Assembly: GCA_963743325.1 (NCBI GenBank)
Contig: CAVUOZ010000006.1
Span: forward strand, 5,207-69,206
Direction: 5' to 3'
DNA length: 64,000 bases
Source: an uncultured Ignavibacteria bacterium
Lineage (GTDB): Bacteria > Bacteroidota > Ignavibacteria > Ignavibacteriales > Ignavibacteriaceae
Part shown: positions 203 to 17,240 of the stretch, one piece after another
Numbering within the stretch: the first letter of the stretch is position 1
Layout: each line of letters opens with the position of its first letter
Notes under the pieces: generated by a model
What the model was told of the DNA's origin: nothing
Seen by the model: only the letters and a program-made list of their open reading frames with translations
Database searches by the model: none
Program-made: the position numbers and the translations under genes

Positions 203-2018
203 ATGGAAGAAAAAAAATTAACAGTCGTCTATTCCTGTGATACCTTAAATGGAAGTGCTGATCTCTTAGACTCTCCGGAAATTATAGTTTATGCATCGAA
301 GTTACCGGGCGTTTCGGCCGTATGGCTCCCTTCTGATATTTCTTTAAAGGATCCAGAACAAGTCGCTAAGAAATTACAAAAGAATAATTTAAAAAGAATT
401 GTTATCGCCGGAGACAATGCAGGAATGCATAAAAGCTTTTTTTCCAGAGCAATGGTACTTGCCGGTAATAATCCCGAGGACGTCATATTAGCAAGTTTCC
501 TTGAATATGGAGCCAGTCATAAAAGCGATATTGAGAGAGCAAAAGCCATAGTTGCATGTGCAGTGTACGGAGTTCCATTTGAAAATGCCGCTGATCCTGA
601 AGAACTTCCTGTAAATCCAGGTACCCTGGTCATTGGCGGAGGGATAGCCGGTATTCAGGCTTCACTTGAGATAGCCGCAAGCAGGAATATAGTGTATCTG
701 GTAGAAAAATCAGCTACGATCGGCGGGCACATGGCAATGTTCGATAAGACTTTTCCTACACTAGATTGTGCAGCATGTATTTTAACACCTAAGATGGTTG
801 AAGTCGGGCAGCATGAATTATATAAAGCTTATGACCTATTCTGAGGTGCAGGAAGTAAAAGGAGTGCCGGGAAACTATACAGTAAAAATATTGAAAAAAG
901 CCCGCAGAATTAATCTTGAACTCTGTACAGGATGCGGAATATGCGCGGAAAAGTGTCCTCCTAAAAAACCGAGTGAATTCGATGCAAATATAACACTAAG
1001 AAGGGCTGCTTATATTCCATTCCCGCAGGCTGTTCCAAATAAATATTTAATTGATCCGAGTATATGCACTTATGTTATAAATGGTAAATGCGGTGCATGT
1101 GTTAAACTTTGTCCGGTTCCGGGTTGTATCAACCTGGATGAAAAAGATGAAATTGTTGAAATCAATGTCGGAAATATTATTGTTGCCACGGGATTTAAAA
1201 CATTTAATGCTACGAAATTCGCACAATTTGGTTACGGAAAATACCCCAATGTATTAACTTCGATAGAACTTGAAAGATTAATCAATGCCGCCGGTCCTAC
1301 AGGCGGAAAAATAGCCAAACGTGTTCAGGATAAAAAAGGGAATTGGGTATTTACTCACGATTCAATCTGTTCGCCCAAAAGCGTAGCAATTATTCATTGT
1401 ATTGGCAGCAGGGATGTGAACTATAATAAATATTGTTCTAAAGTATGCTGCATGTATTCTCTGAAACTTGCACATCTTTTAAAAGAAAAATTACCTGAGG
1501 CGGAAATCAATGAATATTATATTGATATACGTGCATACGGTAAAGGCTACGAAGAATTTTATAACCGTATTAAAAAGGAAGGTGTTAATGTTGTCCGCGG
1601 GAGGCCTGCTAAAGTTGAACAGTACGGGGATGAGCTTATTGTAAGATGTGAAGACATTGAAGGAGCAAGAATAATTGAGCAGAAAGTTGATATGGTTATT
1701 CTTGCGGTTGGAACTGAACCAAGGACTGATTCAGCAAAGATTGCTGAAATGCTGGGGATATCAGTTGATGCATACGGTTGGTTTAAGGAATTTAATTATA
1801 TCAGTGATCCTGTGAATACATTTTCCGGAGGTATAGCCATTGCCGGTGCCTGCCAGGGACCCAAGGATATACCTGATTCAGTTGCCCAGGCTTCGGCTGC
1901 GGCTTCAAGGGTTTTACAAAGTATTGCAAAAAATAAAATAAAAAATGGTATCAAAAGTCTTTCGCTTGAACAAATTGAAACTAAAGCAAAAGAGCTTTCT
2001 AAAATATTGCAGGAATAA
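203..2018 (+). pseudogene. hdrA: HdrA/QmoA-like FAD and FeS oxidoreductase (paralog 1), split by a frameshift near nt 815
   Basis: ORFs 203-844 and 798-2018 are two halves of one HdrA-type protein. The first half has the FAD fold GGGIAGIQASLEIA and TFPTLDCAACILTPKM. After a frame change at about 815 the second half continues NYIKLMTYSEVQEV, with the ferredoxin insert CTGCGICAEKCP, IHCIGSRD and [19 protein letters not shown]. The N-terminal domain lacks the Cys residues seen in paralog 2. Confidence 0.75.
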
Positions 2019-2020
2019 TT

Positions 2021-3196
2021 ATGAGCCAGAGGGTTAATCTTAATCTTAAAAATGAATTGTTCCTCTATGGAGCAAAAGAGTGGAATCAATGTTTTCAATG
2101 CGGTAATTGCACTGCAACATGCCATACAACTGAAAATGGCTTTTTTTTCCCACGAAAAACGGTGCGACAGGTATTAATGGGATTAACAAAGAGCCTTCAA
2201 ACAAATATTGATCCCTGGTTGTGCACATATTGCGGCGATTGTTCAAAAACCTGCCCAAGAGATGCCAATCCTGCCGAAATGATGATGTCCATCAGAAGGT
2301 ACCTTATATCGGTATATGACTGGACTGGTATTTCAAAGCTGTTGTACAAATCCAAAAAACTGGAAATAGCTGCAATTTTTTTATTGGCTGTTATCGTAAT
2401 GATCCTTTATCTCCTATTTACAACCTTTCCTTCCGGAGATGCTGCCCGGTGGATTGGACAAGATGGGGGGGCTTTGATAAATAAAATGGCTCCCTGGAGG
2501 AGAATTCACCTGGGAGACTGGATAATAGCCGGAGGATTAGTAACCTTAATAATAACAAATGTGTTTTATATGTGGTATAAGATAATCTACCAGGACAAAA
2601 CTTTAAAGGTTGGAATCATCGATTACTTAAGGCCTATATCACTTTTACCCAAGATTTTTCGCCCCGATAAAAAATATGCTAAATGTGATGAAAAGAAATT
2701 ATTTCTCTACTGGTCGCTTCATTTATTTTTAGCATTAAGCTATGCCCTGATGTTTACTATAATCGTATTTTTTCTGAGTTGGTTTCAAACAGATAACGTT
2801 TACTCAATTTTTCATCCGCAAAGATTCTTAGGGTATATCGCTACAACAGGGCTGTTGGTAGGAATAATCTATTTTTATACAAATAGAACTATTAAAAACA
2901 TGGAGAACAGTAAATATTCTCATTTTACTGATTGGACATTTCTCATTTTATTGTTCCTGACAACCTTAACAGGCATTTTACTGCATTTTTTCAGAATATT
3001 TGGTTTACCTCAATTAACATACATTACTTACCTGCTCCATTTAATGGTGTTAGTACCTATGTTAACTATAGAAGTCCCATTTTCTAAATGGTCTCATATG
3101 ATCTACAGACCATTCTCGCTTTATTTTGCTCATTTGAAAAAACTGGCAATAAAAAATCAAAAAGTATTATTGAACAATTACATTTTACAGAATTGA
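2021..3196 (+). CDS. QmoC/HdrE/DsrM-like subunit: N-terminal HdrC-type 2x[4Fe-4S] domain fused to a NarI-like multi-helix membrane (cytochrome b-type) domain
   Basis: Two cluster motifs (CFQCGNCTATC and CTYCGDCSKTCPRD) are followed by about 6 hydrophobic helices with conserved His (SLHLF, LLHFF, LLHLM). The C-terminal PFSKWSHMIYRP resembles the NarI-family PFS(K/R)LxH signature. The gene starts 2 nt after hdrA paralog 1. Confidence 0.65.
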   Translation: MSQRVNLNLKNELFLYGAKEWNQCFQCGNCTATCHTTENGFFFPRKTVRQVLMGLTKSLQTNIDPWLCTYCGDCSKTCPRDANPAEMMMSIRRYLISVYDWTGISKLLYKSKKLEIAAIFLLAVIVMILYLLFTTFPSGDAARWIGQDGGALINKMAPWRRIHLGDWIIAGGLVTLIITNVFYMWYKIIYQDKTLKVGIIDYLRPISLLPKIFRPDKKYAKCDEKKLFLYWSLHLFLALSYALMFTIIVFFLSWFQTDNVYSIFHPQRFLGYIATTGLLVGIIYFYTNRTIKNMENSKYSHFTDWTFLILLFLTTLTGILLHFFRIFGLPQLTYITYLLHLMVLVPMLTIEVPFSKWSHMIYRPFSLYFAHLKKLAIKNQKVLLNNYILQN

Positions 3197-3201
3197 ATAA
3201 A

Positions 3202-4926
3202 ATGGAAGAAACAAGAATAGGTGTTTATATCTGCTGGTGCGGTACCAACATCGCCAACCTGGTTGATGTTGAAAACGTTTCCAAAGAAATCCAGAATCTG
3301 CCAAATGTTATTATTTCCAAGAATTACAAATATATGTGTTCTGATCCCGGACAGGATCTTATTGTTGAGGACATTAAGGAATATAGTCTGAATAGAATTG
3401 TAGTTGCGGCCTGTTCTCCAAGAATGCATGAGATTACATTCAGGAGAGCATTGGAAAAATCCGGTCTGAATCCTTATATGTTCGAAATGGCAAATATAAG
3501 GGAACATGATTCATGGGTTCATACTAACAGAAATGAGGCAACAAAAAAAGCCAAAGACCTTATTGCTGCCGCTATCGCCAGGGTGCAATGGCACGAAGCT
3601 CTGGAAAAAAGAAGTGTGGATGTAAATCCTGCTACTCTGATAATTGGAGGCGGAATTTCAGGTATATCTGCTGCGCTGGAAATTGCCAATGCCGGCAGAC
3701 AAGTATATCTTGTCGAGAAATCAGGAACTTTAGGCGGTCTCGTTTCTAATATTGATCTGACCTACCCTTATCTGAACAGCGCTAAAACGATGATCGATTA
3801 TAAAATTTATTCCGTTTTGAATCATCCCAAAATAAGTGTTTATCTAAAGACTGAGATAGACCAGGTATTTGGATATGTGGGTAATTTTGAAACGGATATT
3901 AAATCAGGCGGCAAAGAGATCAAACTTAATTTTGGAAACGTAATTGTTGCAACAGGGCTAAAACCATTTGATTCAAAAAAGATTATAAATTATGGTTATG
4001 GTAAACTACCCAATGTTATAACATCAGTGGAATTCGAACAAGTATTAAAAAACGGTATCATTATAACAAGAGACGGGAGAGTGCCCAGAGATATTGCAAT
4101 TATACATTGCGTTGGAAGCAGGAACGAGGATTATAATGCTTACTGTTCACGTACATGCTGTATGACTGCCTTAAAATTTATTAACCAGATAAAATCGGCT
4201 CTTCCTGAGACTAATGTCTACGATATATATTCTGATATGAGAGCATTTGGAAAAGGCTGTGAAGAGCTGTATTCAATTACCTCGAAAAAAAATGTAATGT
4301 TTTTGACATTTGACCACAAAGCTAATCTGCCACAAATCAGTCAGGCATCATACAAGGACTCATGCAACTTACTTATAGAGTTTAGAGAAAAATTCTCGGG
4401 CGAATCCATTGAAGTGCCGGCAGATATAGTTATTCTAATGGTCGGCATGGAAGCCCATGATGATGCCAAACAAGTATCGCATGCTGTTGGTGTAAGTATG
4501 GATGGAAACAGGTTCTTCATTGAACGGCATCCAAAATTAGACCCGGTAGCAACAACCACCGATGGAGTTTATGTTGTTGGAACCTGCCAATCGCCTAAGG
4601 ATATTCCCGATTCTGTTTCGCAGGCCAGGGCCGCCGCCGCAAGAATACTTGCAACAATCCAATCAGGTTCAGTTAACGTAGAAGTGACTACTTCAGTTGT
4701 AAATGAAGAAATCTGTTGCGGATGTCAGACTTGTATAAAAGTCTGCCCTTATTCAGCAATCAGTTTTAAAGAAGAAGAAAAAGTATCTTATGTTAATGAG
4801 ATACTTTGCAAAGGCTGCGGAACCTGCGGTTCTGCCTGTCCTACAGGTGCAATTAAATGCAAGCATTTTACAGATCTGCAAATATTATCTGAAATAGAAG
4901 GACTCATGTCACTACAGGAGGCTTAA
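3202..4926 (+). CDS. hdrA: HdrA-like heterodisulfide-reductase subunit A (paralog 2) with C-terminal 2x[4Fe-4S] ferredoxin domain
   Basis: Internal ATG at 3202 ([20 protein letters not shown]) is preferred over the ORF-track start at 3088, which overlaps the previous gene. Motifs: Cys-rich N-domain ([19 protein letters not shown]), FAD fold [41 protein letters not shown], and C-terminal [12 protein letters not shown] / [12 protein letters not shown]. Confidence 0.85.
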
Positions 4927-4930
4927 AACT

Positions 4931-5356
4931 ATGAATCAAAGTCCTAAAATTGTTGCGTTTTTATGTAACTGGTGTTCATACACCGGGGCAGATCTTGCAG
5001 GAACATCAAGGATGAAATATGCTTCAAATATCCGCATTATCAGAATTATGTGTTCCGGACGTGTTGAGCCGACTTTTGTTTTAAAAGCTTTTAAAGAAGG
5101 TGCTGATGGAATATTAATTTGCGGATGCCATCCGGGTGATTGTCATTATCACGAGGGGAATTACAAATGTTTAAGGAGATTCCATCTGCTGCAAAAATAT
5201 TTAGTTCAAATGGGCATTCCGGTCGAGAGATTAAAACTTGAGTGGATAAGTGCAAGCGAGGGTGCTGAGTTTGCTCAGCTTGTTAACGAATTCACTGAGA
5301 CTCTGAAAGGACTTGACCCAAGCCAAATAAAGAAAACAGTCGAGACATTTTCTTAA
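4931..5356 (+). CDS. mvhD: MvhD-like hydrogenase delta subunit ([2Fe-2S] electron-transfer protein)
   Basis: 141 aa with [23 protein letters not shown] and [15 protein letters not shown], typical of methyl-viologen-reducing hydrogenase delta subunit. It sits directly upstream of the hydrogenase small subunit gene. Confidence 0.85.
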
Positions 5357-5380
5357 AATTAAAAAAGCAGAAGAAAATAA

Positions 5381-6358
5381 ATGACTAACGAAAAAAAATC
5401 GAAAATAAATCTTGCCATATACTGGGGTGCTGCGTGTGGTGGTTGTTGTGTTTCAGTTCTCGATGTACATGAATCTCTGTTTACCGTTGTTGAACACGCT
5501 GATATCGTCTTTTGGCCTATTGCTCTGGATTTTAAGTATAAAGATGTCGAAGCGATGCCGGATGGTTTTATTGATGTCACATTATTCAATGGCGCGGTTA
5601 GAAACAGCGAAAATGAGAGTATGGCAAAACTGTTACGCAAAAAAACCAAAGTGTTAGTTGCTTATGGATCCTGTGCCCACATGGGAGGAATTCCAGGTCT
5701 TGCTAATTTTTCAAATAGGGAAGCAATATTTAATAGAGTGTATAATGAAAGTGAATCAACTTCAAATCCTGAGAAGATATTTCCCCAACCACACTTCAAA
5801 GTACCGGAAGGAACATTAGAATTGCCTGTATTTTACAATGATGTAAAAACTTTAAATCAGGTAGTGAATGTTGACTATTATCTGCCGGGTTGTCCCCCCC
5901 AGACTGAAAGATTAGTTGAAGTATTTATGGCTATTGTAACCGGGGCACAACTTCCACCGGCGGGTTCTGTCGTCGGAGCTTATGATAAAACCCAATGCGA
6001 TGAATGTAAGAGAAAAAAATCGGATAATAAATTAATTAAAGAATTTAAAAGACCCTGGCAAATTAAAGATGATGGTGAAACCTGCTTTTTAGAACAAGGT
6101 GTAATATGTATGGGCCCGGCTACCAGAGGTGGTTGCGGCGTAAGATGTATTGAAGGAAATGCACCCTGCAGAGGTTGTTACGGTCCGCCGCCTGATGTAA
6201 CCGACCCCGGAGCAAAAATGATGTCTGCTATTGCCACAATGATAGATTCGAATGATCGAAACGAAATAGAAAAAATTATTGAGACAATTGAAGACCCGGC
6301 AGGAACATTTTATAGATTTAGTCTTCCCGGTTCGATGTTAAGGAGGAAGATTATATGA
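5381..6358 (+). CDS. mvhG: [NiFe]-hydrogenase small subunit, MvhG-like (group 3c-like)
   Basis: N-terminal WGAACGGCCVSVLD, YGSCAHMGGIPG, YLPGCPP, and distal-cluster Cys run CMGPATRGGCGVRCIEGNAPCRGCYGP. No Tat signal, so a cytoplasmic enzyme. 4-nt overlap with the large subunit gene. Confidence 0.85.
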   Translation: MTNEKKSKINLAIYWGAACGGCCVSVLDVHESLFTVVEHADIVFWPIALDFKYKDVEAMPDGFIDVTLFNGAVRNSENESMAKLLRKKTKVLVAYGSCAHMGGIPGLANFSNREAIFNRVYNESESTSNPEKIFPQPHFKVPEGTLELPVFYNDVKTLNQVVNVDYYLPGCPPQTERLVEVFMAIVTGAQLPPAGSVVGAYDKTQCDECKRKKSDNKLIKEFKRPWQIKDDGETCFLEQGVICMGPATRGGCGVRCIEGNAPCRGCYGPPPDVTDPGAKMMSAIATMIDSNDRNEIEKIIETIEDPAGTFYRFSLPGSMLRRKII

Positions 6359-7824
6359 AACGATATACTATAGACCCGCTTACCCGGCTTGAAGGACATG
6401 GGAAAATTGAAATTTTCTGTACAGACGACGGGGATGTGGAAAATGTTTATTTCCAGGTACCTGAATTAAGAGGTTTTGAGAAATTTTTAGAAGGAAGAGT
6501 TATTGAGGAAGCATCACAAATTGTTACTAAAATCTGCGGTGTATGCCCGGGCTGTCATCACATGGCTGCCGGTAAAGCAACTGATGCAGTTTTTGGCGTT
6601 AAACCAACACCAACTGCCATTAAATTAAGAGAATTGTTCTATATGGCTCATTTTGTTCATAGTCATATAGCTCACTTTTATGCATTGGCTGCGCCTGATT
6701 TTGTAGTTGGACCAACTGCTCCCGCTGCAGAAAGAAATATACTCGGAGTAATTGCTAAAGTAGGTGTTGAAATTGGAACTGAAGTTTTAAAACAACGTCG
6801 TATTGCCCAGGAGATTCAGGCACTCCTCGGTGGTCATCAAACACATATAGTTATGAATACTCCGGGCGGTGTTAGAAAAGGATTGACCGAAGCTCAACGA
6901 AAAGATATTGAAGAGAAAGCAAAAGGATTTGTTGAATTTGCAAAGTTCACTTTCAAAATATTTAACGATGTTGTTTTGTCAAACAAAACTTATGTTGATA
7001 TTATTCTTAACGGGCCATATTCATTGAACATCTATTCTATGGGTCTTGTTGATGAAAACAATAAAGTAAATTTCTATGATGGTAAGGTAAGAGTTGTTGA
7101 TCCGGAAGGTAATGAGCATTGTAAATATGCCCCTGAAGATTACCGCAATTGGATTGAAGAAAGAGTTGAGCCTTACAGTTATTTGAAATATCCTTACTTA
7201 AAACAAGTCGGCTGGAAAGGATTTGTTGAAGGAAAAGACTCCGGTGTGTACCAGGCTACTCCTTTGGCGAGATTAAATGTTGCTGATGGCATGGCTACTC
7301 CTTTAGCACAAGAGCAGTACGAACAAATGTATAAAACACTTGGCGGAAAACCGGTTCATGCAACCTTAGCGATGCATTGGGCACGATTAGTTGAATTACT
7401 ATATGCTGCCGAAAGAGCGGTTGAATTAGCCCAGGACAAAGAAATAACAAGTCCAGATATTCAGGCAGAACTTCCAGCTGCACCCAAAAATAAAGAAGGT
7501 ATTGGCATTGTTGAAGCACAAAGAGGTACTTTAACACACCACTACTGGACTGATGAAAAAGGAATTATCACCAAAGCAAACATTATTGTGGGAACTACAA
7601 ATAATAATGCACCGATTTCTATGTCTTTAAAAAAAGCTGCACAAGGATTGATTAAAAAGGGGGTTTCTGCTGACGAAGGTATTTTAAATATGGTTGAGAT
7701 GGCTTTCAGAGCTTATGATCCATGTTTCTCCTGTGCAACACATAGTTTACCCGGCAATATGCCATTAGAAGTTGTTTTCAGGGATGCGAAAGGCAATATA
7801 ACGAGACAAGTTAAAAGAAATTAA
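6355..7824 (+). CDS. mvhA: [NiFe]-hydrogenase large subunit, MvhA-like (group 3c-like)
   Basis: RLEGHG near the N-terminus, L1 metal-site motif ICGVCPGCH, and L2 motif DPCFSCATHS followed by a 26-aa C-terminal extension, which is the substrate for the endopeptidase. Confidence 0.9.
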   Translation: MKRYTIDPLTRLEGHGKIEIFCTDDGDVENVYFQVPELRGFEKFLEGRVIEEASQIVTKICGVCPGCHHMAAGKATDAVFGVKPTPTAIKLRELFYMAHFVHSHIAHFYALAAPDFVVGPTAPAAERNILGVIAKVGVEIGTEVLKQRRIAQEIQALLGGHQTHIVMNTPGGVRKGLTEAQRKDIEEKAKGFVEFAKFTFKIFNDVVLSNKTYVDIILNGPYSLNIYSMGLVDENNKVNFYDGKVRVVDPEGNEHCKYAPEDYRNWIEERVEPYSYLKYPYLKQVGWKGFVEGKDSGVYQATPLARLNVADGMATPLAQEQYEQMYKTLGGKPVHATLAMHWARLVELLYAAERAVELAQDKEITSPDIQAELPAAPKNKEGIGIVEAQRGTLTHHYWTDEKGIITKANIIVGTTNNNAPISMSLKKAAQGLIKKGVSADEGILNMVEMAFRAYDPCFSCATHSLPGNMPLEVVFRDAKGNITRQVKRN

Positions 7825-7854
7825 AGGAATAAGATTTTTGCTTATGCAACTAAA

Positions 7855-7882
7855 AGTCAGTACTTATGTGCTGACTTTTTTT
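7855..7882 (+). terminator. Rho-independent terminator after mvhA
   Basis: agtcagtac-ttat-gtgctgact forms a 9-bp stem (one G-U pair) followed by a tttttt tract, 30 nt after the mvhA stop. Confidence 0.6.
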
Positions 7883-7893
7883 ATAAATTTATA

Positions 7894-8379
7894 ATGAATA
7901 GAAGTAGAATACTCATATACGGAATTGGTAATGAAATTTTGACAGATGACGGTATCGGACCAAAACTTGTAGAAAGACTTAAAGGCAATTTATCTAAAAA
8001 AGATATTGATTTTGAAACAGCTTACTTAGGGGGACTCGAATTACTGGAATATATTCAGGGCTATCATACTGTTATTTTTATAGATGCAATCAGAACAAAG
8101 GATGGATTACCAGGAAGAGTTTATCAATTATCTCCTGAAAATTTCAATAAAACCATTCACCTATCAAGCGTTCATGATGTATCTTTTCTTACATCTGTTG
8201 AGTTAGGAAAAAAACTAAAATTAAATATGCCTCAATTTATTCATATCATAGCTGTCGAAATAGTTGAGGATAGGATATTTGATGATAATTTTTCCCCGCA
8301 GATACAGGAGAAGTATGAAGAAATCTTTAATGAAGTAAAGGAAATAACTGAACGAATACTTGCAAACATTATTATTTAA
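7894..8379 (+). CDS. Hydrogenase maturation endopeptidase (HyaD/HoxW/FrhD family)
   Basis: 161 aa with ILIYGIGNEILTDDGIG, FIDA and SVHD motifs typical of the Ni-dependent C-terminal processing protease. Adjacent to the hydrogenase genes. Confidence 0.8.
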   Translation: MNRSRILIYGIGNEILTDDGIGPKLVERLKGNLSKKDIDFETAYLGGLELLEYIQGYHTVIFIDAIRTKDGLPGRVYQLSPENFNKTIHLSSVHDVSFLTSVELGKKLKLNMPQFIHIIAVEIVEDRIFDDNFSPQIQEKYEEIFNEVKEITERILANIII

Positions 8380-8427: not shown

Positions 8428-9744
8428 TTATTTCTCTTTCTTCAGCAGCAGATAAACGGTGGTTCCGACATTCACTTTACTTTCAATCCAGATTTTGCCT
8501 CCATGATCTTCAACAATATTTTTTGATATAGCAAGTCCCAAACCTGTTCCATCTTTCATTTCAGCTTTGGCATTTTTTGCTCTGTAAAATTCGTTGAATA
8601 TAAGGGGTATTTCATTTTCAGGAATACCCATACCACTGTCAATTACCTCAACCAGTACATTCTCCATTTTATCTTTAACATTAATTAAAACATTTTTACC
8701 CGCATAAGAATATTTAACAGCATTTTGAATTATGTTTGATAAAACTTCTTCAACAGAAGATGGTTCACCATATATATTATCTATAGATGATCCTATATTT
8801 TTTATAAGGCTTATATTTTTTTCCTGTGCATTGTTCTCAGTCATCTTAATTATTTCTTCAAGTAAGTTTTTTAAGCTAAAATATTTTTTTTCGGATTTTT
8901 GAAGGAGTTTTCTGTTAGTTATACTTAAAAGATCAGAAATGAATTTATTAAGTATTTGAATTCTTTTATAAGCACGGCTTACAAATTCTTCCTGTTGTGA
9001 ATTTAAAGGTCCTGTAAGTTTTTCATTTAAAACGGATATACAACTTTGTATCGCAGTAATATGTCCTTTTATGTCATGGGTAATACGCATTACATATTCG
9101 TTTTTTATTTTATCTTTATGTTCCAGTTCAGCATTAGCTTGCAAATAAGCTGCTTCATGCTTCTCTGATTGCTTAATAATATTTCTTGTAATGTATACAA
9201 CAAAGTAGGAAGTGGAAATAAATATAAATCCGGTACATGCTAAATAAGTTAGATTGTTATACATATTAGCAGTAACAAAACCTTGCAATGGGAAATGCCG
9301 TAAAATACCTGAATATTCTAAATAAGTCATCGCTCCTAACAGCATTAATGCAAATGAGGTTTGAAGAAAACTTTCTTTGGTACTAAGCATTATACTTCCA
9401 ATTATCATATGAAAAATGTAGTAGATGATAAATGGATTTTCAACTCCCCCCGAATAATGTAAAAGAACTGTCAATACAATTAAATCGGTAGAAATCTGAA
9501 AATTAATAATTCTCTTTACATCCTTTAATGATTCTCTGACACCCTGTTTTTGTAAATATTTTAAGAGAGAGAATGATAATAGGTTTAATAGAATCAGAAA
9601 TACTATAATGCTGTAAACAGGTAAGTCAGCGATGCTGATATTAAGATAATGTCTGGCTATATAGTAGGCAATGAAAATGCCAATAATAGCAAACCACCGC
9701 AATGTGATAAGCCAATATGCAAGCCTGACAATTCTGAGGTTCAT
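8428..9744 (-). CDS. Membrane sensor histidine kinase
   Basis: About 6 N-terminal TM helices, H-box ITHDIKGHITAI, N-box NIIQNAVKY, G1 VIDSGMGIP and G2 GTGLGLAISKNIV. Confidence 0.85.
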   Translation of the reverse strand: MNLRIVRLAYWLITLRWFAIIGIFIAYYIARHYLNISIADLPVYSIIVFLILLNLLSFSLLKYLQKQGVRESLKDVKRIINFQISTDLIVLTVLLHYSGGVENPFIIYYIFHMIIGSIMLSTKESFLQTSFALMLLGAMTYLEYSGILRHFPLQGFVTANMYNNLTYLACTGFIFISTSYFVVYITRNIIKQSEKHEAAYLQANAELEHKDKIKNEYVMRITHDIKGHITAIQSCISVLNEKLTGPLNSQQEEFVSRAYKRIQILNKFISDLLSITNRKLLQKSEKKYFSLKNLLEEIIKMTENNAQEKNISLIKNIGSSIDNIYGEPSSVEEVLSNIIQNAVKYSYAGKNVLINVKDKMENVLVEVIDSGMGIPENEIPLIFNEFYRAKNAKAEMKDGTGLGLAISKNIVEDHGGKIWIESKVNVGTTVYLLLKKEK

Positions 9745-9795
9745 TTTTGCACTTCAGCAGAATATATTAATCAATTAATGATAAATGATTGCTAA

Positions 9796-10182
9796 TTATA
9801 ATGATTCTTTTATGGCTTCTAATAATTCTTCCCAATCACCGGATTTTTCAATAAATTTTGTTTTGGGCAGCGAGTCAATATCTTCAATTGCAGCACGCAT
9901 ATTTACTCCAATTGATTTAGCCATACTTGTACTCATGATAATCGGAATTTCCTTAAAATATTCATCTGATTTTAATTCATTCAGAAAATTAAACCCTTCA
10001 AGGTTCGTATCCATCATAATGTCCAGGATAATTAAATCAGGGTGAAATGCTTTAAGAATCCCTAAGCCAATTTTGGAGTTAATTGCAGTCTCGACTTCAT
10101 ATTTTTTACTTTCGAGAAAGACCTTGGTAGATGCTAATAAATCAACATCATCATCGATTAGTAAGATTTTATTTTTTTTCAT
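9796..10182 (-). CDS. Single-domain response regulator (CheY-like receiver, no output domain)
   Basis: 128 aa with KILLIDDD, phospho-acceptor context LIILDIMMD, and the IIMSTS / K motif. Immediately upstream of the kinase on the same strand. Confidence 0.85.
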   Translation of the reverse strand: MKKNKILLIDDDVDLLASTKVFLESKKYEVETAINSKIGLGILKAFHPDLIILDIMMDTNLEGFNFLNELKSDEYFKEIPIIMSTSMAKSIGVNMRAAIEDIDSLPKTKFIEKSGDWEELLEAIKESL

Positions 10183-10352: not shown

Positions 10353-10673
10353 TTGATATCTTTTATTTCATTCAGGAAAAAGAATTGTTTCGGGTTCAGT
10401 GTGAAGGATACCGGGATCGGAATTTCAGAAGAAGATAAGGTAAATATCTTCAGTGAATTTTACAGGAGTAAAAAGGCGAGGGAAATGGAACGGCTCGGTA
10501 CCGGTCTTGGGTTGAACCTTGTGAAGGAAATATTTAAGAGAAACAATGGCACAATAAATGTCGAAAGTGAGATTGATAAAGGAAGCACTTTTACTGTTGA
10601 ATTTCCTTTAACGACTACTGAATATCCGGAATTTGAATACCATCTTGTCACAAAACCTTATATTTTCGAATAA
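10353..10673 (+). pseudogene. Histidine-kinase 3' remnant (HATPase_c G1/G2 boxes only)
   Basis: The translation contains only VKDTGIGISEED, FSEFYRS, GTGLGLNLVKEI and GSTFTVEFPL. There is no H-box, sensor domain or credible start or RBS. Confidence 0.6.
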
Positions 10674-10820: not shown

Positions 10821-11887
10821 TTAACATATACGGGGTAGCTGTTCACCGGAAAGCATATCAACTATCCGTGTGGTTCCGATCGATGTTTTCATTACGACCG
10901 ATCCGGGATTCCCGGTTACTACCTTACCAATAATAACCGACTCTTTTCCCAAGAGGATGAGATCGCATTGCATTTAATACATTTGCAGAATCCTCTTCAG
11001 GTACAAATGCAACAAGTTTTCCTTCATTGGCAATATACAGCGGATCAAATCCGAGAATTTCGCAGGCTCCTTTTACTTCTTCGGAAATTGGGATACTATT
11101 CTCATCTATTATAATAGACTGTCCTGATGTCATTGCAATTTCATTTAATGCAGTAGCCAACCCGCCGCGGGTAGGGTCGCGCAGTACATGTATATTCCGG
11201 GAGGTATTCAACATAACTTCGACAAGGGAATTTAACGGGGCAGTATCGCTTTTGATCTGAGTTTCAAAGGAGAGTCCCTCACGTGCAGACATAATAGCAA
11301 TGCCGTGGTCTGCTATTCTGCCGTTAAGAATTATTACATCTCCGGGTGAACAATTTTTAGGAGAGATATCAACTCCCGGCATAATAAAGCCGATACCAGA
11401 AGTATTTATAAATATTTTATCTCCCTTTCCTTTATCAACTACTTTTGTATCTCCGGTAACTATCTGCACACCTGCAGCCTCAGCAGCCTGTCTGCATTGA
11501 TAAAACAATCTGCCAGAGTTCTTCCATCGGCAGCCCTTCTTCAATGATAAATCCTGCAGAAATAAATAATGGTTTTGCGCCGCACATTGAGAGATCATTT
11601 ACAGTACCATTAATTGCAAGCTCACCAATATTACCTCCGGGGAAGAAGACCGGATGCACCACATAGGAATCTGTTGAAAAGGCAATTCTTCCTTCTTTAA
11701 CAGGAATGACTGCACCGTCATGTTCCTCGCTAAGGAATGAATTGCTGAACTGGGAGAGAAACATTTTCTGAATCAACTGGTGTGAAAGATTTCCGCCGCC
11801 GCCGTGAGCAAGCAATACTTTGTTATAATTGCTTATAGGAATCGGACAAGCCATACCGTTATGAATATTAATTTTTATATCAGACAT
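10821..11887 (-). pseudogene. hypE: hypE (hydrogenase maturation carbamoyl dehydratase) with at least 2 frameshifts
   Basis: The N-terminal part is ORF 11480-11887 ([25 protein letters not shown]). The middle part is ORF 10924-11598 in another frame ([18 protein letters not shown]). The canonical C-terminus IIGKVVTG...GEQLPRIC-stop is found by hand in a third frame at 10821-10940. Confidence 0.85.
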
Positions 11888-11914
11888 ATTTAACCTGCTG
11901 CTCTCTCATGTTTT

Positions 11915-12992
11915 TTATAATGGATAATATGCGGCACAAACTCCTTCAGATGAAACCATTGGTGCGCCGTGCGGATGTTCCGGTGTACATAAACTGCCGA
12001 AAGCACTGCATTCAGAGGGTTTCTTTAATCCCTGCAACACTTCACCTGCAATGCATAAAGGTGATTCGTTTACTTCAACGTCCGCAACGTTGAAGACCTT
12101 TTCTGCATCAAATTCAGAATATGAATCTTTCAATCTGAATCCGCTTTGGGGTATGGTTCCTATACCGCGCCATTTACGGTCAACAGTGCGAAACACAGTT
12201 TTCAATAATTCCTTTGCGGGAATGTTTCCCTGTTTTGAAACAACCCTCCCGTACTGGTTTTCAACTTCATAACGTTTCTCTTCCAACTGCTCTTACCGCC
12301 ATGTAGATTCCCTGGAGAATATCGACCGGTTCAAATCCTGTTACAACAATCGGGATTTTATATTTATCAGACAAAGGGATATATTCCTCATATCCCATCA
12401 CCGTGCATACATGTCCGGCTGCAAGGAATGCCTGGATCTTTGTTTCCCGGTTTGAAAGGAGGGCTTCAATAGCCGGAGGAACGAGGACATGAGAACAGAG
12501 TATGGAGAAATTTTTTAATCCTCTTCTTTTTGCTTCTACAACAGCCATTGCATTTGCGGGGGCGGTAGTTTCAAAACCGACTGCGAAGAAGACGACTTTT
12601 TTATCTTTATTCATTGCGGCAATATTAACAGCATCCAGCGGGGAAAATACTATCCTTACATCATGCCCGTTTGCCTTCACACTAAGAAGGTCATCTTTTG
12701 AGCCTGGTACGCGGAGCATGTCGCCAAAGGAAGTAAAGATTACGTCATCATGCGAAGCAATAGTTAAAGCCTTATCTATCATCTCAAGGGGAGTGACACA
12801 AACCGGGCAGCCGGGACCATGAACAACCGTTAATTCTTCAGGCAGCATTTCTTCAATACCGTACTTCATAATAGTATGCGTCTGCCCGCCGCATATTTCC
12901 ATAATGACATGGGGTTTAGTAATTGTTTTCTTTATCAGTCGCGAATAACCTTCAGCAGCTTTTGCACTTCTGAATTCATCTACGTACTTCAT
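11915..12992 (-). pseudogene. hypD: hypD with one frameshift near nt 12290
   Basis: ORF 12267-12992 has [19 protein letters not shown] and GFETTAP. ORF 11915-12286 continues as [12 protein letters not shown]...CTPEHPHGAPMVSSEGVCAAYY. The join MAVR|QLEEKR requires a 1-nt frame change. Confidence 0.85.
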
Positions 12993-13019
12993 TCTGTTTC
13001 CTTACTTTCATCAACCAGG

Positions 13020-13244
13020 TCACTCCATCTCTCTGAGCATTTCGATTGTTGACAAAGCTTCCTTTTCATCAACCTTGCTTAGAGCGAATCCGACATGCAC
13101 AAGCACATAATCACCAACTTTAACATCATCGAGCCACTGCAGACATACATCTTTACCCACACCGGCAAAATTAACTTTGCCCATTTTTAACTCGGGTATA
13201 GTTTCATCAATTGAAACGACTTTACCCGGGATTGAAAGACACAT
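13020..13244 (-). CDS. hypC: HypC/HupF hydrogenase assembly chaperone
   Basis: 74 aa starting MCLSIPGKVV, the diagnostic HypC N-terminus. Intact. Confidence 0.9.
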   Translation of the reverse strand: MCLSIPGKVVSIDETIPELKMGKVNFAGVGKDVCLQWLDDVKVGDYVLVHVGFALSKVDEKEALSTIEMLREME

Positions 13245-13247
13245 TTT

Positions 13248-15556
13248 TTACTCCTTTAATAGGGGAGATTTTATAGAAGACATTACAGCTGCTATCTGAC
13301 CGAGAGAGATTCCGCCGTCATTTGTCGGAATACGCTGATGACGGTAAACAGTAAATCCTGCAGACTCAAGTTCCTTTATTGTTCTTTCAAGAAGGAAAAC
13401 ATTCTGGAAACATCCGCCGCTTAGAACTACTTTCTGCAATCCGGATAATTTTAATATTTCCAAAATTATCATAACCAGTGTGTTGTGGAATTTAGCTGAT
13501 ATTACGGAACTGCTAATTCCTTTTTCCAGATCAGCAAGGATGCTTATAATAATTGGCTGCCAGCTGATTATCTTTTTCTCTTCTTCAACAATATCAAAAG
13601 GATAGGAATTCAATTCGTTTTCATCTGCTGCGAATTCAAGCATCATTGCCGGTTGGCCTTCAAAATTCGAACGCTGGCTTATTCCGGCTATTGAGGAAAC
13701 CGCATCAAATAGTCTTCCTGCACTTGATGTAAGAGGGGAGTTGATCTTTTTTCTGATCATCTGTTCTAATAAAATCTGTTCATGCTCCGTGAAATTATTA
13801 AGCAGTTTTTTATTGACTGTGAATAAGTCGTCACCAAAAATTTTGATACAGAACTCCTGCAGCAGATCTTCGTGGTTCCTGTACTGCAAGCTCACCTCCT
13901 GGCAGACAGAATTGTTCAAGCTGAGCAAAGTGTGAGAATTTATCTCCGTCATAAAGGAAAAACTCTCCACCCCAGATGGTGCCATCAGTGCCATAACCTG
14001 TACCGTCCCAGGAAACACCAAGTACTTTTCCACTGATTCTATTCTCAGCATAGCATGAAGCAACATGCGCCTGATGATGCTGCACCTGAAGTGATTCCCA
14101 ACCGGTTGAGGCAGCGTATCTGGTTGAAATATAATCAGGATGAAGATCGCTGATTATTAATTCAGGGTTCATATCATAGATTTTTGTAAAATCACTTATG
14201 ACTTTTATAAAAGTCTTATATGCTTCTTCAGTCGAAAGGTCGCCTATATGCTGGCTGACAAATATATTGTTTCCAGAAGACACTGAAATATTATTCTTCA
14301 TATGTCCTCCTACGGAAAGATAATTTTTACAGCCATTATTGTGAATTTCTCTGTTGTTCAGCTGGACAGGCAGGGGGGCATATCCTCTTGAACGTCTAAT
14401 CATCATTTCTCTTCCTGATACTATTCGGACAATGGAGTCATCGACATGCCGTACTATAGGTCTGTTGTGGATTAGAAAATAATCTGCTATATCGTGCAGC
14501 CGGTTAAACGCATCCTCCTCATTTATGCAGATGGGTTCTTCGGAAAGGTTACCGCTTGTGGCTATCACAGGAATTTCCAGATTATCCATCAACAAATGAT
14601 GAAGGGGTGTGTAGGGAAGCATTATTCCGAGATAAGGATTTCCTGGAGCTATTGAATTCATCTATTTTAATTTTAAAGTTTTCGCCGGGTTTTCTTTTAA
14701 GAAGTACTATAGGGGATTCAGGGGAAGAGAGGAGCCGTTCTTCCATCGGGGAGACCAGACATACTTCTTTTATAGAATAAATCCCGGGAAACATCAGCGC
14801 AAACGGTTTTTCATCACGGTGTTTTCTTTCCCGTAATTTTTTAATAACCCTTCTGTCATCCGCTCTGCAGATTAACTGATACCCTCCCAAGCCCTTTTAA
14901 TGCCAAAATATGGCCTTCCAGAACAGAATTTACTGCGTCCTTCAGAGCATCGGATTTAGCTGATAATATTGTGCGGTTCCGGTCTGTTAACTCAATATGG
15001 GGGCCGCAGTCAGGACATGCAATAGGTTGTGCATGAAACCGCCTGTTTGAAGGATCATTATATTCAGCCCGACATTTATCGCACATGACAAAACATTTCA
15101 TAGATGTATTCGGGACGGTCATACGGAAGGGATTCAATAATGGAAAACCTCGGTCCACAATGTGTGCAGTTAATGAATGGATACATATAGCGGCGGTCAT
15201 CAGGGTTAGTTCATTTCTTCGAGACATTCTTTGCATACGGCGATGTCAGGAAGTATAAATGCCGAAACTTTTCCGTTTTTTCCGCTCTCCCTGATCTCAA
15301 ATTTGTCAAAGCCTAAAGGATCAAGGTAGGAGAACTCCATACTCTGGATAATTGAATTTACCGGTTTTTCATTCCCGATTCTGATAATAAAATTATCTAA
15401 TGCGATTTTTTCTCCCTCGGCTTCAATAAAAACTCCCTGAGGTGAATTGAGGACAAACCCATTAAGGTTCATTGAGGATGCAAGCCGGAAAATAAAAGGT
15501 CTGAATCCAACCCCCTGTACCGCTCCGCGGATTACAACAGAAATTCGTGCAAACAT
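13248..15556 (-). pseudogene. hypF: hypF (carbamoyltransferase) broken into at least 6 frame segments
   Basis: The acylphosphatase domain is ORF 15206-15556 (RGAVQGVGFRPF). The Zn-finger [32 protein letters not shown] is readable only in a third frame, followed by [37 protein letters not shown]. The YrdC-like part (GGYQLICRADD...KPFALMF) is ORF 14582-14890. The Kae1-like part (GIMLPYTPLHHLL...SWDGTGYGTDGTIWGGEF) is ORF 13831-14661. The C-terminal part is ORF 13248-14066. Frame changes fall at about 15208, 15112, 14880, 14650-14700 and 13845. Confidence 0.85.
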
Positions 15557-16572
15557 TATGAGTAAATATTCGATTCAATCCACCCGCACCAGTCACTTAT
15601 TCCTGCTCCTGTTGTGCAGGATGTTTCAAATATTCTTAATTGTGGATTTATTGATAATGCATTATCTCTAATTTTTTCAACTGAACAATTAATGTACGGA
15701 AGAAGATCGATTTTATTTATTATCAAGACTGAAGCATTTCTAAACATTGCCGGGTATTTAAGAGGTTTATCGTCCCCCTCAGTTGTACTGAGTACAAGAA
15801 CCTTAACATTTTCACCAAGATCATAACCGGCCGGACAGACAAGATTCCCCACATTCTCAATAATCAGAAGCTGAACACCATTCAGGTTTAAATTATTCAG
15901 CGCATCACGGACAAGTCCCGCTTCAAGATGGCATCCGCCGTTTGTAACTATTTGTGTAACTGAAACTTTAAGCATATTTATGCGCTGTGCATCAAGGTCA
16001 GTCTGCACGTCTCCTTCAATAACTGCAATCCTGATTTTGTCTTTCAGAAATTCAATTGTTTTTTCAACTATACTTGTCTTTCCTGACCCGGGAGAGCTAA
16101 GAATATTAAAAGAGAAAATATTTTTGTCTCTAAGTCCTTCTCTTATATTTGCCGCGATGGCATCATTCTTTTCAAGGACTTTCCGTTCAACTGTAATAAG
16201 ACTCAATTTTACACCTCCGTTATTCTCTTCTTCAAATAATTCAATTTCTGTCACTAATAATTCATATCCTGTTATCACTTTAATATCTGTGCTGCCGCAA
16301 TCAATGCAACTGAATGTGAAACCTTCAATTTCATTTACAGATCCGCATTTATTACACTTTACGGTAATTGGCACCTGCTCAATTTCCAGTTTCGGTCCGA
16401 CAGAGTTTCCGGAAGAGTTTATAGCTTCAAAACAAAAATTGAGCGAATCGGGTATAATATTCTGAAGTTTACCGATCCTGATTCTTACTGATTTAATAAA
16501 TCTTTTCTGATCAGCTTTAACGTACTGATCAATAATTCCGTTTATTTCGTAAGCTATAGAAAGTTCATGCAT
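15556..16572 (-). CDS. hypAB: Fused HypA (Zn/Ni metallochaperone) and HypB (Ni-binding GTPase)
   Basis: Residues 1-115 form a HypA module: MHELSIA and two CxxC pairs (CNKCGS, CIDCGS). The remainder is HypB: P-loop SSPGSGKTS, IEGDVQT and ENVGNLVCP. It is a single uninterrupted 338-aa ORF. Confidence 0.8.
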   Translation of the reverse strand: MHELSIAYEINGIIDQYVKADQKRFIKSVRIRIGKLQNIIPDSLNFCFEAINSSGNSVGPKLEIEQVPITVKCNKCGSVNEIEGFTFSCIDCGSTDIKVITGYELLVTEIELFEEENNGGVKLSLITVERKVLEKNDAIAANIREGLRDKNIFSFNILSSPGSGKTSIVEKTIEFLKDKIRIAVIEGDVQTDLDAQRINMLKVSVTQIVTNGGCHLEAGLVRDALNNLNLNGVQLLIIENVGNLVCPAGYDLGENVKVLVLSTTEGDDKPLKYPAMFRNASVLIINKIDLLPYINCSVEKIRDNALSINPQLRIFETSCTTGAGISDWCGWIESNIYS

Positions 16573-17240
16573 CAGAATAATATCCAGTAAAATCCGATGA
16601 AAATTGCTGCAGCGCTAAAGCTGGCAAGCATTCTTTGAATAATTATGGTTCCTTTAACTTCAAGATATTTTGATAAGTATCCGATTATGGCTGCAAATGC
16701 TGTCATAGCTGCAAGCGTTCCGACTCCAAAAAACAATAGATAGAAAACGCCATCGATCCTTGAAGTAAACGCCAGGGCAGGGAGTATACCGAAAATATGC
16801 GAGGTCCCGGCAAATCCATGCATGATACCGACTGCAAATGCAGTGTGAGTATGAAAATGGGCGTTGGGTGCTTCGTGAGACATTTCTTTTCCATGTGAAT
16901 GGAAATGAATATGTTTATTACCGTCGTGCTCATGGTAATGAACATGAACTTTGTTATAATAAGCTTTTCGTATTCCCCATAACCCGATCCCGATCAAAAT
17001 TATTCCGATTATTCTTTCGCTGTACCCGGAAATAAAATTCATGGGAATAATTTCTCTTAAAGCCAAACCGAGAAATCCGAGGAGGCAAACCCCTCCGGTA
17101 TGTCCGATACCCCATTTGAAACCAATCGATATGGATTTGTCCCTGTTTTCAATCGCAAGTGGTGCAACAGCAGCGAGATGATCCGGGCCTGTTAGAACAT
17201 GGATTGAGCCGGCAGCAAAACCTAATATTACAGAAAGCAT
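16572..17240 (-). CDS. hupE: HupE/UreJ-family membrane protein (putative Ni/Co permease) with His-rich loop
   Basis: About 6 TM helices, N-terminal HVLTGPDHL motif and central loop HVHYHEHDGNKHIHFHSHGKEMSHEAPNAHFHTH. It is the first gene of the hyp operon, and its stop overlaps the hypAB start. Confidence 0.6.
   Translation of the reverse strand: MLSVILGFAAGSIHVLTGPDHLAAVAPLAIENRDKSISIGFKWGIGHTGGVCLLGFLGLALREIIPMNFISGYSERIIGIILIGIGLWGIRKAYYNKVHVHYHEHDGNKHIHFHSHGKEMSHEAPNAHFHTHTAFAVGIMHGFAGTSHIFGILPALAFTSRIDGVFYLLFFGVGTLAAMTAFAAIIGYLSKYLEVKGTIIIQRMLASFSAAAIFIGFYWILF

Follow-up and report, generated by a model that had tools for sequence, protein, structure and literature searches.

A seven-gene Ignavibacteria locus may encode a membrane-anchored, flavin-based bifurcating hydrogenase linking H2 to menaquinone and ferredoxin

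Group 3c [NiFe]-hydrogenases found outside methanogens are routinely annotated as heterodisulfide-linked, although their hosts make no CoM-S-S-CoB. A seven-gene cluster in a 64,000-nucleotide (nt) stretch of DNA from an uncultured Ignavibacteria bacterium, hereafter the window, offers a concrete alternative electron acceptor: the quinone pool. The cluster combines an Mvh-type hydrogenase with two HdrA paralogs and a QmoC-like membrane protein. On balance we think it probable, from sequence comparison, that the seven genes encode one membrane-anchored, flavin-based bifurcating hydrogenase that passes electrons from H2 to menaquinone and ferredoxin. The gene content of the cluster, the homologies of its products, its conserved synteny and the complementary cofactor sites of its two HdrA paralogs are direct observations, and they are presented below. 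Genes were called from the open reading frame (ORF) listing together with Pfam and NCBIfam scans; the cluster comprises the following elements.

203-2018, + strand: hdrA-like 1 (QmoA-like position), with flavin adenine dinucleotide (FAD)-binding and thioredoxin-reductase-like domains; split by a +1 insertion
2021-3196, + strand: QmoC-like HdrC/cytochrome b fusion (NCBIfam qmoC, HdrC match, AlphaFold2 (AF2) model)
3202-4926, + strand: hdrA-like 2 (QmoB-like position), by alignment to HdrA 8rvu_a
4931-5356, + strand: mvhD, [2Fe-2S] electron-transfer subunit (PF02662 FlpD, 2e-54, full length; VhuD, 8e-39)
5381-6358, + strand: mvhG, [NiFe]-hydrogenase small subunit (VhuG, 1.4e-64; PDB MvhG 5odc_E, 1e-66)
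6355-7824, + strand: mvhA, [NiFe]-hydrogenase large subunit (VhuA, 1.2e-110; PDB MvhA 9sw2_F and 5odc_F, 1e-113)
7852-7888, + strand: intrinsic terminator-type hairpin with U-run in the gap between mvhA and the protease gene (-18.9 kcal/mol, z = -4.27)
7894-8379, + strand: hydrogenase maturation endopeptidase (TIGR00072, 5.7e-27; PF01750)

The block is as compact as a preliminary description of this DNA had stated: successive genes are spaced by 2, 5, 4 and 24 nt, mvhG and mvhA overlap by 4 nt, and 69 nt that include the hairpin precede the endopeptidase gene (ORF coordinates; folding z = -4.3). The order given there (hdrA1, membrane protein, hdrA2, mvhD, mvhG, mvhA, endopeptidase) also stands, but hdrA-like 1 is not the single ORF it was taken for. 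In this sequence the gene consists of two overlapping ORFs, 203-844 and 798-2018, separated by a frameshift that had been missed: three close relatives, whose protein is intact at 599-604 amino acids (aa), lack a T that is present here at about 815-818. Selenocysteine or a programmed frameshift was rejected as an explanation, because the relatives read straight through an uninterrupted gene with one base fewer. The start of hdrA-like 2 at 3202 is backed by 574-aa orthologues in close relatives.

The large hydrogenase subunit, as read from its translation, retains its nickel-iron ligands in the motifs KICGVCPGCHH (Cys61, Cys64) and DPCFSCATH (Cys457, Cys460, His463). The latter is followed by a C-terminal extension of 26 residues, a tail for the protease, and the maturation protease gene adjoins. 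Among NCBIfam models it scores 370 bits with VhuA, versus 189 with NiFeSe, 161 with ShyA and 146 with FrhA; the VhuA equivalog cut-off is 800 bits. The products of mvhG and mvhD are likewise closest to Mvh/Vhu-type subunits and likewise under equivalog cut-offs. The earlier assignment to the Mvh-type [NiFe]-hydrogenases needs a qualification: MvhA/VhuA and MvhG are indeed the closest matches in NCBIfam and PDB, at scores that stay under the equivalog level (370/800 for the large subunit). Judged by these scores, the large and small subunits are of Mvh/Vhu type (group 3c-like) and, since no subunit reaches the cut-offs, are not orthologues of the methanogen enzyme in NCBI's sense.

The gene placed between the two hdrA copies encodes a protein with two sets of cysteines, C24-x2-C27-x2-C30-x3-C34 and C68-x2-C71-x2-C74-x3-C78-P, followed by six predicted transmembrane helices and a long C-terminal helix (AF2 models, pLDDT 81 and 85); a VPFSKWSH motif and the histidines are conserved in its family. 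These features had been announced as two CxxCxxCxxxC(P) motifs, about six helices, conserved histidines and a PFSKWSH tail, and the translation, the AF2 models and the family alignment agree on them. The NCBIfam qmoC model (NF038018) matches the protein over positions 3-359 of 360, with 189 bits (1.4e-55) against an equivalog cut-off of 300 bits, and HdrC (7BKB) matches residues 21-94 (3e-13). On the qmoC model, ten other members of the family, from hydrogenase-linked and hydrogenase-free loci alike, reach 183-219 bits. A library-wide phmmer search yielded 129 clusters at E <= 1e-30, and three proteins from it pass the QmoC cut-off (306, 380 and 399 bits). The window protein is 24-27% identical to these three in alignment. 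With true QmoC it invariably shares the eight cluster cysteines, Cys222, His234, His340 and His359, whereas His322, His163 and His301 are confined to its own family. Its score of 189 bits against a cut-off of 300, together with the range of 183-219 bits for the ten other family members, identifies it at the sequence level as belonging to a sister family of QmoC, not to QmoC proper.

The histidine pattern bears on the heme sites. One histidine lies ten residues into one helix and two others stand 19 residues apart in the last helix; the heme ligands of HdrE/EMO-type cytochromes b are reportedly spaced in this way (preprint 10.64898/2026.08.18.745454). In sulfate reducers, quinols reduce the two b hemes of QmoC (PMC3333476). 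The preliminary description had grouped the membrane protein with NarI, HdrE, DsrM and QmoC. The QmoC side of this grouping is supported by full-length homology, the eight cysteines and His234, His340 and His359; the direct link to NarI is not. No PF02665 match was obtained in the Pfam scan, hhalign of the family profile against E. coli NarI gave E = 0.17, and NarI (1Q16) was outside the top 50 in a Foldseek search with the membrane domain alone. The sole meaningful match of that search was mycobacterial EtfD 9ojn (probability 0.98, E = 0.2, TM-score 0.43), and the model of the whole protein retrieved only the HdrC part and a weak EtfD match. Since the membrane domain of EtfD has been described by others as NarI-like (preprint 10.64898/2026.08.18.745454), the label "NarI family" follows from QmoC homology and from that description rather than from a direct match. 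A PDB sequence search with the membrane protein returned no solved Qmo complex, and the public contig index held no exact entry for it.

Further evidence comes from the two HdrA paralogs, whose presence in the locus was correctly anticipated and is confirmed by Pfam and NCBIfam matches and by alignments to solved HdrA structures. On the NCBIfam HdrA2 model the HdrA score is 585, for an equivalog cut-off of 1100. The intact HdrA1 orthologue aligns to residues 20-570 of HdrA 5odc_A; HdrA2 aligns to residues 9-243 and 323-653 of HdrA 8rvu_a, skipping the inserted domain. HdrA1 carries the FAD domain, a DCxxC motif (equivalent to Cys197) and an inserted 2x[4Fe-4S] ferredoxin domain. It has the fold of the N-terminal cluster domain with the cluster cysteines gone, and has no C-terminal ferredoxin domain. 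HdrA2 carries the N-terminal cluster domain with its cysteines, the FAD domain and a C-terminal 2x[4Fe-4S] ferredoxin domain, but it has no DCxxC motif, and its inserted ferredoxin domain is missing as a whole. All 36 orthologue pairs compared from hydrogenase-linked loci show this complementary pattern. Over these 36 orthologues the invariant cysteines are 189, 192, 241-251, 288-303 and 399-416 in HdrA1, and 11, 13, 46, 71, 303-320, 505-515 and 536-546 in HdrA2.

In the solved Mvh-Hdr complex such sites lie on a described electron path. According to Chadwick et al. 2022 (PMC9012536), electrons pass from MvhD to the C-terminal ferredoxin domain and on to FAD, where two branches begin: one runs through the thioredoxin-reductase-domain cluster to HdrC and HdrB, and the other through the N-terminal cluster, to which the partner HdrA contributes the completing Cys197, then on to the inserted ferredoxin domain and to ferredoxin. 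Tandem HdrA genes with such complementarity are, in the view of the same authors, an obligate HdrA heterodimer (PMC9012536). The complementary sites in our 36 pairs therefore imply, as far as conserved residues can tell, an asymmetric HdrA1/HdrA2 heterodimer in which electrons from the hydrogenase enter at a single site on HdrA2 and leave for ferredoxin at a single site on HdrA1, the two subunits sharing one N-terminal cluster.

The arrangement is not peculiar to the window. In a scan with each GTDB species represented by a single genome, relatives of the membrane protein turned up in at least 592 genomes; the 80 best of these gave 83 loci, which were sorted by tblastn and a distance tree. The full hydrogenase-linked arrangement is present in 34 of the 83 loci, and five more are cut by contig ends. 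A synteny survey had been proposed in the preliminary description, and the seven-gene order does recur, in close relatives as in these 34 loci, among both Ignavibacteriales and Bacteroidales. Carriers include Ignavibacteriales, a Chlorobiota metagenome-assembled genome (MAG) and many Bacteroidales (Draconibacterium, Prolixibacteraceae, Marinilabiliaceae, Rikenellaceae, Bacteroidaceae and Porphyromonadaceae). At least 34 species-level carriers are found among the 80 best genomes, mostly Bacteroidales of sediments, digesters and lakes. The gene arrangement is permuted in two loci (L052 and L076), and hyp maturation genes adjoin 21 of the 34 hydrogenase-linked loci.

What the cluster lacks is equally consistent. 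No CCG/HdrB protein was found among the window ORFs scanned, nor within 10 kb in three relatives (L001-L003), in line with the earlier remark that the locus has no HdrB/HdrC subunit of the CCG type. An hdrBC pair immediately upstream, raised at the time as a possible refutation, was rejected: in close relatives the operon is preceded by a small divergent ORF and a major facilitator superfamily (MFS) transporter, or by a histidine kinase and hyp genes. The scanned ORFs of the window also contain no apr, sat or dsr domains, again as previously noted, and a link to sulfate reduction was rejected since these genes are missing from the window.

From these data we infer a single complex, with quinone as an acceptor, bifurcation at a flavin and electrons flowing from H2. 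It would be composed of MvhAG, MvhD, the HdrA2/HdrA1 heterodimer and the QmoC-like cytochrome b, through which it would be anchored in the membrane. H2 would be oxidised at the [NiFe] site of MvhA, and electrons would travel through the MvhG clusters and the [2Fe-2S] cluster of MvhD to the C-terminal ferredoxin domain, present in HdrA2 only, and then to an HdrA flavin, where bifurcation would take place. The high-potential electron would go by way of the thioredoxin-reductase-domain cluster, the two [4Fe-4S] clusters of the HdrC-like domain and the b hemes to menaquinone. The low-potential electron would use the single N-terminal cluster, whose ligands would be HdrA2 cysteines plus the DCxxC cysteine of HdrA1, and leave through the inserted ferredoxin domain, present in HdrA1 only, to reduce ferredoxin. 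The overall reaction would be 2 H2 + MK + 2 Fd(ox) -> MKH2 + 2 Fd(red) + 2 H+, where MK is menaquinone and Fd ferredoxin. Standard potentials are -414 mV for H2, -74 mV for menaquinone, about -500 mV for ferredoxin and -140 mV for the heterodisulfide. Menaquinone could thus replace the heterodisulfide of methanogens as a close energetic stand-in (about -74 versus about -140 mV). Calculated from these values, the reaction would release about 50 kJ per menaquinone reduced. The coupling of H2 through HdrA flavins to the quinone pool and ferredoxin, instead of a heterodisulfide, had been put forward in the preliminary description; protein families, synteny and cofactor sites all support it as a predicted function.

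Several points weigh against this interpretation. The cluster type has so far been recognised from genomes only. Both HdrA paralogs have FAD motifs, so that either flavin, or neither, might bifurcate. The membrane domain has no sequence similarity to NarI itself that Pfam or hhalign could detect, and its sole structural neighbour, EtfD, scores only weakly in the model comparison. The second axial ligand of the distal heme is not assignable. An HdrB-type partner may be encoded elsewhere in the genome, beyond the 64-kb window, and hdrA1, hypF, hypD and hypE are frameshifted in this particular assembly.

Other functions can be proposed for the same genes. In a fermentative host the complex could work mainly in reverse, with reduced ferredoxin and menaquinol producing H2 (confurcation) while partner organisms keep H2 very low, and so dispose of quinol-level reducing equivalents. 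Such a role would suit the polysaccharide-degrading heterotroph that the window encodes (GH94, GH3, GH43, GH2, TonB-dependent receptors, type IX secretion cargo), and flavin-based bifurcating enzymes are generally reversible; an Ignavibacteria reconstruction treats the group 3c enzyme as a re-oxidation route for reduced carriers (PMC7509429), and confurcation by Qmo has been proposed for sulfate reducers (PMC3333476). We nevertheless consider it unlikely, for characterised group 3c enzymes act as H2 oxidisers and the reverse reaction is, by our own calculation, endergonic by about 50 kJ at standard conditions and feasible only near 1 Pa H2; no sequence feature fixes the direction. It is also doubtful that the enzyme is a plain, non-bifurcating H2:menaquinone oxidoreductase facing the cytoplasm, in which the HdrA paralogs form an electron wire and ferredoxin is not a substrate. 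Reduction of menaquinone by H2 alone is strongly exergonic, the structure closest to the membrane domain is that of EtfD, and enzymes of the EtfD/EMO type conduct electrons from a flavoprotein through FeS clusters and b heme to menaquinone with no bifurcation (PMC13083937). Two flavoproteins would however be superfluous in a mere wire, and the conserved residues are those of the ferredoxin branch: none of the 36 orthologues has lost any of the eight cysteines of the inserted ferredoxin domain, the same holds for the N-terminal cluster cysteines of HdrA2 and the DCxxC of HdrA1 that jointly complete the cluster, and in the solved Mvh-Hdr complex the inserted-domain branch leads to ferredoxin (PMC9012536). 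Lastly, a soluble Mvh-HdrA enzyme could bifurcate to ferredoxin and to some disulfide through a distant HdrB-like protein, the membrane subunit being an anchor or a secondary inlet. Bacterial hdrA/mvhDGA clusters with hdrBC do exist, for instance in Caldithrix (PMC5317091), and the window spans only 64 kb; but at least 34 genomes have the QmoC-like gene between the two hdrA genes, spaced by 2 and 5 nt, the HdrC-like domain, which occupies the HdrB-feeding position of Hdr complexes, is here fused to a cytochrome b, and relatives examined have no CCG protein within 10 kb. This arrangement seems to us very improbable.

A further question is whether the system works at all in this genome, or whether hdrA1, hypF, hypD and hypE are pseudogenes and the locus a decaying remnant of a conserved module. 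Reading frames are broken by twelve single-base insertions; hdrA1 has one of them, and about ten or eleven fall in hypF, hypC, hypD and hypE, genes of a neighbouring maturation cluster. There are five breaks in hypF, about two each in hypD and hypE, and one at the end of hypC; the frame-breaking positions are approximately 15208, 15111, 14891, 14654, 13845, 13023, 12291, 11925, 11489, 10956 and, in hdrA1, 818. The remaining ~45 kb have no comparable damage and no obvious split genes, with many intact ORFs of 600-1100 aa, a concentration that would be compatible with local decay. Unlike natural decay, however, all twelve breaks add a single base with respect to L002; deletions are absent, and no break falls within a long homopolymer. 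Between the shifts the hyp frames are 76-94% identical to intact orthologues, the six operon genes other than hdrA1 are intact, and the pattern fits an unpolished long-read patch. Given twelve +1 shifts without a deletion and the good conservation of the frames between them, an assembly artefact, such as a poorly polished stretch, appears more likely than natural decay, and we judge an inactive remnant improbable.

The nearest published counterpart of the cluster is archaeal. A "Mvh-Qmo-Hdr" cluster has been reported in the methanogenic Archaeoglobi Ca. Methanoglobus nevadensis and Ca. M. hypatiae, where it is highly expressed (995-2431 reads per kilobase per million, RPKM) and was called "fascinating" and "unique" (Buessecker et al. 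2023; Lynes, Krukenberg et al. 2024). Going by the published descriptions, the two clusters share MvhA, MvhG, MvhD, two HdrA homologues and an HdrC/QmoC cytochrome b fusion, and both are without HdrB and without linkage to apr, sat or dsr. They differ in context, which is archaeal, thermophilic and methanogenic for the published cluster, and in distribution: the cluster deemed unique to those archaea has a bacterial counterpart in dozens of Bacteroidales and Ignavibacteriales genomes. Because the same gene set and the transfer of electrons from H2 to menaquinone and ferredoxin have already been proposed for Ca. Methanoglobus, the function hypothesis itself is not new; the bacterial cluster is a new and much more widespread member beside the archaeal one.

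Like MvhADG-HdrABC of methanogens (PDB 5ODC, 8RVU, 9SW2), the cluster has MvhA, MvhG and MvhD, all four HdrA domains, an HdrC-type di-cluster domain and the proposed logic of flavin-based bifurcation. It differs in having HdrC fused to a membrane cytochrome b and no HdrB (CCG, non-cubane clusters), hence no disulfide-reducing site. Moreover, the methanogen HdrA is a homodimer with all features in one polypeptide, whereas here they are split over two paralogs with complementary losses. With QmoABC of sulfate reducers and sulfur oxidisers it shares two HdrA-like flavoproteins, an HdrC/cytochrome b fusion with the same eight cysteines and three histidines, and an MvhD module tied to the second flavoprotein. 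Gene order is A-C-B in the window (hdrA1, qmoC-like, hdrA2) and A-B-C in QmoABC, MvhD is a separate gene instead of being fused to QmoB, HdrA1 has an additional N-terminal domain without cysteines, a hydrogenase takes the place of AprAB as partner, and the membrane subunit is only 24-27% identical (189 of 300 bits). HdrDE and EtfD/EMO (electron-transfer flavoprotein (ETF):menaquinone oxidoreductase) also possess an HdrE/NarI-type b-heme membrane domain that is fed by [4Fe-4S] clusters and exchanges electrons with a membrane quinone or phenazine. They have CCG domains, however, and no hydrogenase or HdrA flavoprotein; they either accept electrons from ETF or reduce a heterodisulfide, and their membrane domain has five helices versus six in the window protein. 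A precedent for bifurcation with a quinone as high-potential acceptor and ferredoxin or flavodoxin as low-potential acceptor is provided by FixABCX/EtfABCX, which uses unrelated ETF-type flavoproteins and NADH, not H2, as donor.

In the literature we searched, no bacterial description of the hydrogenase/QmoC-like linkage was found; reviews on HdrA modules may already cover the type. An Ignavibacteria genome paper labels the enzyme "MvhADG/HdrABC" (PMC7509429), and a Caldithrix paper mentions hdr genes of unknown function beside a 3c hydrogenase (PMC5317091). In our estimate the chances are about even that the cluster defines a widespread bacterial, membrane-bound bifurcating [NiFe]-hydrogenase with menaquinone as high-potential acceptor and an obligately asymmetric HdrA1/HdrA2 heterodimer. 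Were this the case, many anaerobic Bacteroidales and Ignavibacteria could make low-potential ferredoxin and charge their quinone pool straight from H2, a trait hidden by current "MvhADG/HdrABC" annotation labels, and the modelling of H2 uptake, of respiration with low-potential acceptors and of ferredoxin supply in these communities would change. Specialists who know the archaeal reports will find little surprise in the proposal, but the module is common in abundant anaerobic bacteria, and the complementary HdrA pair adds a clear structural argument for bifurcation. The pair is also a naturally asymmetric system for assigning roles to the halves of the HdrA dimer and, given how difficult the archaeal hosts are to cultivate, bacterial hosts may be a practical test bed for the published hypothesis.

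The survey of membrane-protein relatives brought up arrangements of other kinds. Thirty-eight further loci have a hydrogenase-free order: an MvhD-like gene, QmoA-like and QmoB-like genes, a 92-aa ORF and the QmoC-like gene. In L030 (1220-11137) three rhodanese and two DsrE-like genes precede this series, in which the 92-aa ORF is conserved; L012, L034, L062 and L073 are other examples. The taxa concerned are Bacteroidales, Krumholzibacteriota, Chloroflexi, Acidobacteriota, Verrucomicrobia and Planctomycetes. From its gene neighbours, this arrangement looks like a sulfur-trafficking partner for a Qmo-like module that is not apr-linked. A family member without hydrogenase also occurs in a Ca. 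Methanoperedens locus (L064). Duplications were seen in two cases: a Porphyromonadaceae MAG (L041, 8237-21168) has a second mvhDGA set followed by another hdrA, and L026 (1376-15429) has a second, divergent hdrA1-qmoC-like-hdrA2 set without hydrogenase.

Two non-coding elements accompany the operon. The hairpin at 7852-7888 folds better than any of 200 shuffled sequences (0/200 at -18.9 kcal/mol) and is kept, with one compensatory pair, in the two closest relatives (L001 and L002); it is not found between mvhA and the protease gene of a Bacteroidales locus (L005). A simple terminator scan did not pick up this hairpin, which folding did reveal, and Rfam and tRNA scans over the window gave no matches. 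Before the first start codon, an AT-rich block of 45 nt (158-202) is near-identical in L001 and L002, while the remaining intergenic region has diverged; this block is a candidate promoter or operator region.

Candidate regulatory genes and maturation genes follow the operon on the opposite strand.

8428-10182, - strand: histidine kinase (six-helix PilS-like N-terminus and HATPase) and receiver-only response regulator (Pfam)
10824-17240, - strand: hypE, hypD, hypC, hypF, hypB/hypA and a DsbD_2-type membrane protein (tblastn with L002 Hyp proteins, Pfam)

The kinase/regulator pair is also found beside the operon in L001, and the same kinase is located upstream of the operon in L002 and L003. 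By gene association alone, kinase and regulator are possible dedicated regulators of the operon. Between the response regulator and hypE, a 106-aa ORF (10353-10673, + strand) has only the C-terminal ATPase part of a histidine kinase and is apparently a gene fragment. At 15556-16572 (- strand), hypA and hypB form one 338-aa ORF, in frame without a stop; in L002 they are two genes, 2 nt apart. The DsbD_2-type membrane protein (16572-17240, - strand) has a very histidine-rich loop (HVHYHEHDGNKHIHFHSHGKEMSHEAPNAHFHTH), and since its gene adjoins hypA here and in both L001 and L002, it may be a nickel importer. Farther along, a large polysaccharide-utilisation region (28891-59238), with all of its ORFs intact, encodes a LacI regulator, a TonB-dependent receptor, a PorV-like protein, GH94, GH3, GH43 and GH2 enzymes, two glucoamylase-like proteins, an ABC sugar transporter and several proteins with type IX secretion sorting domains.

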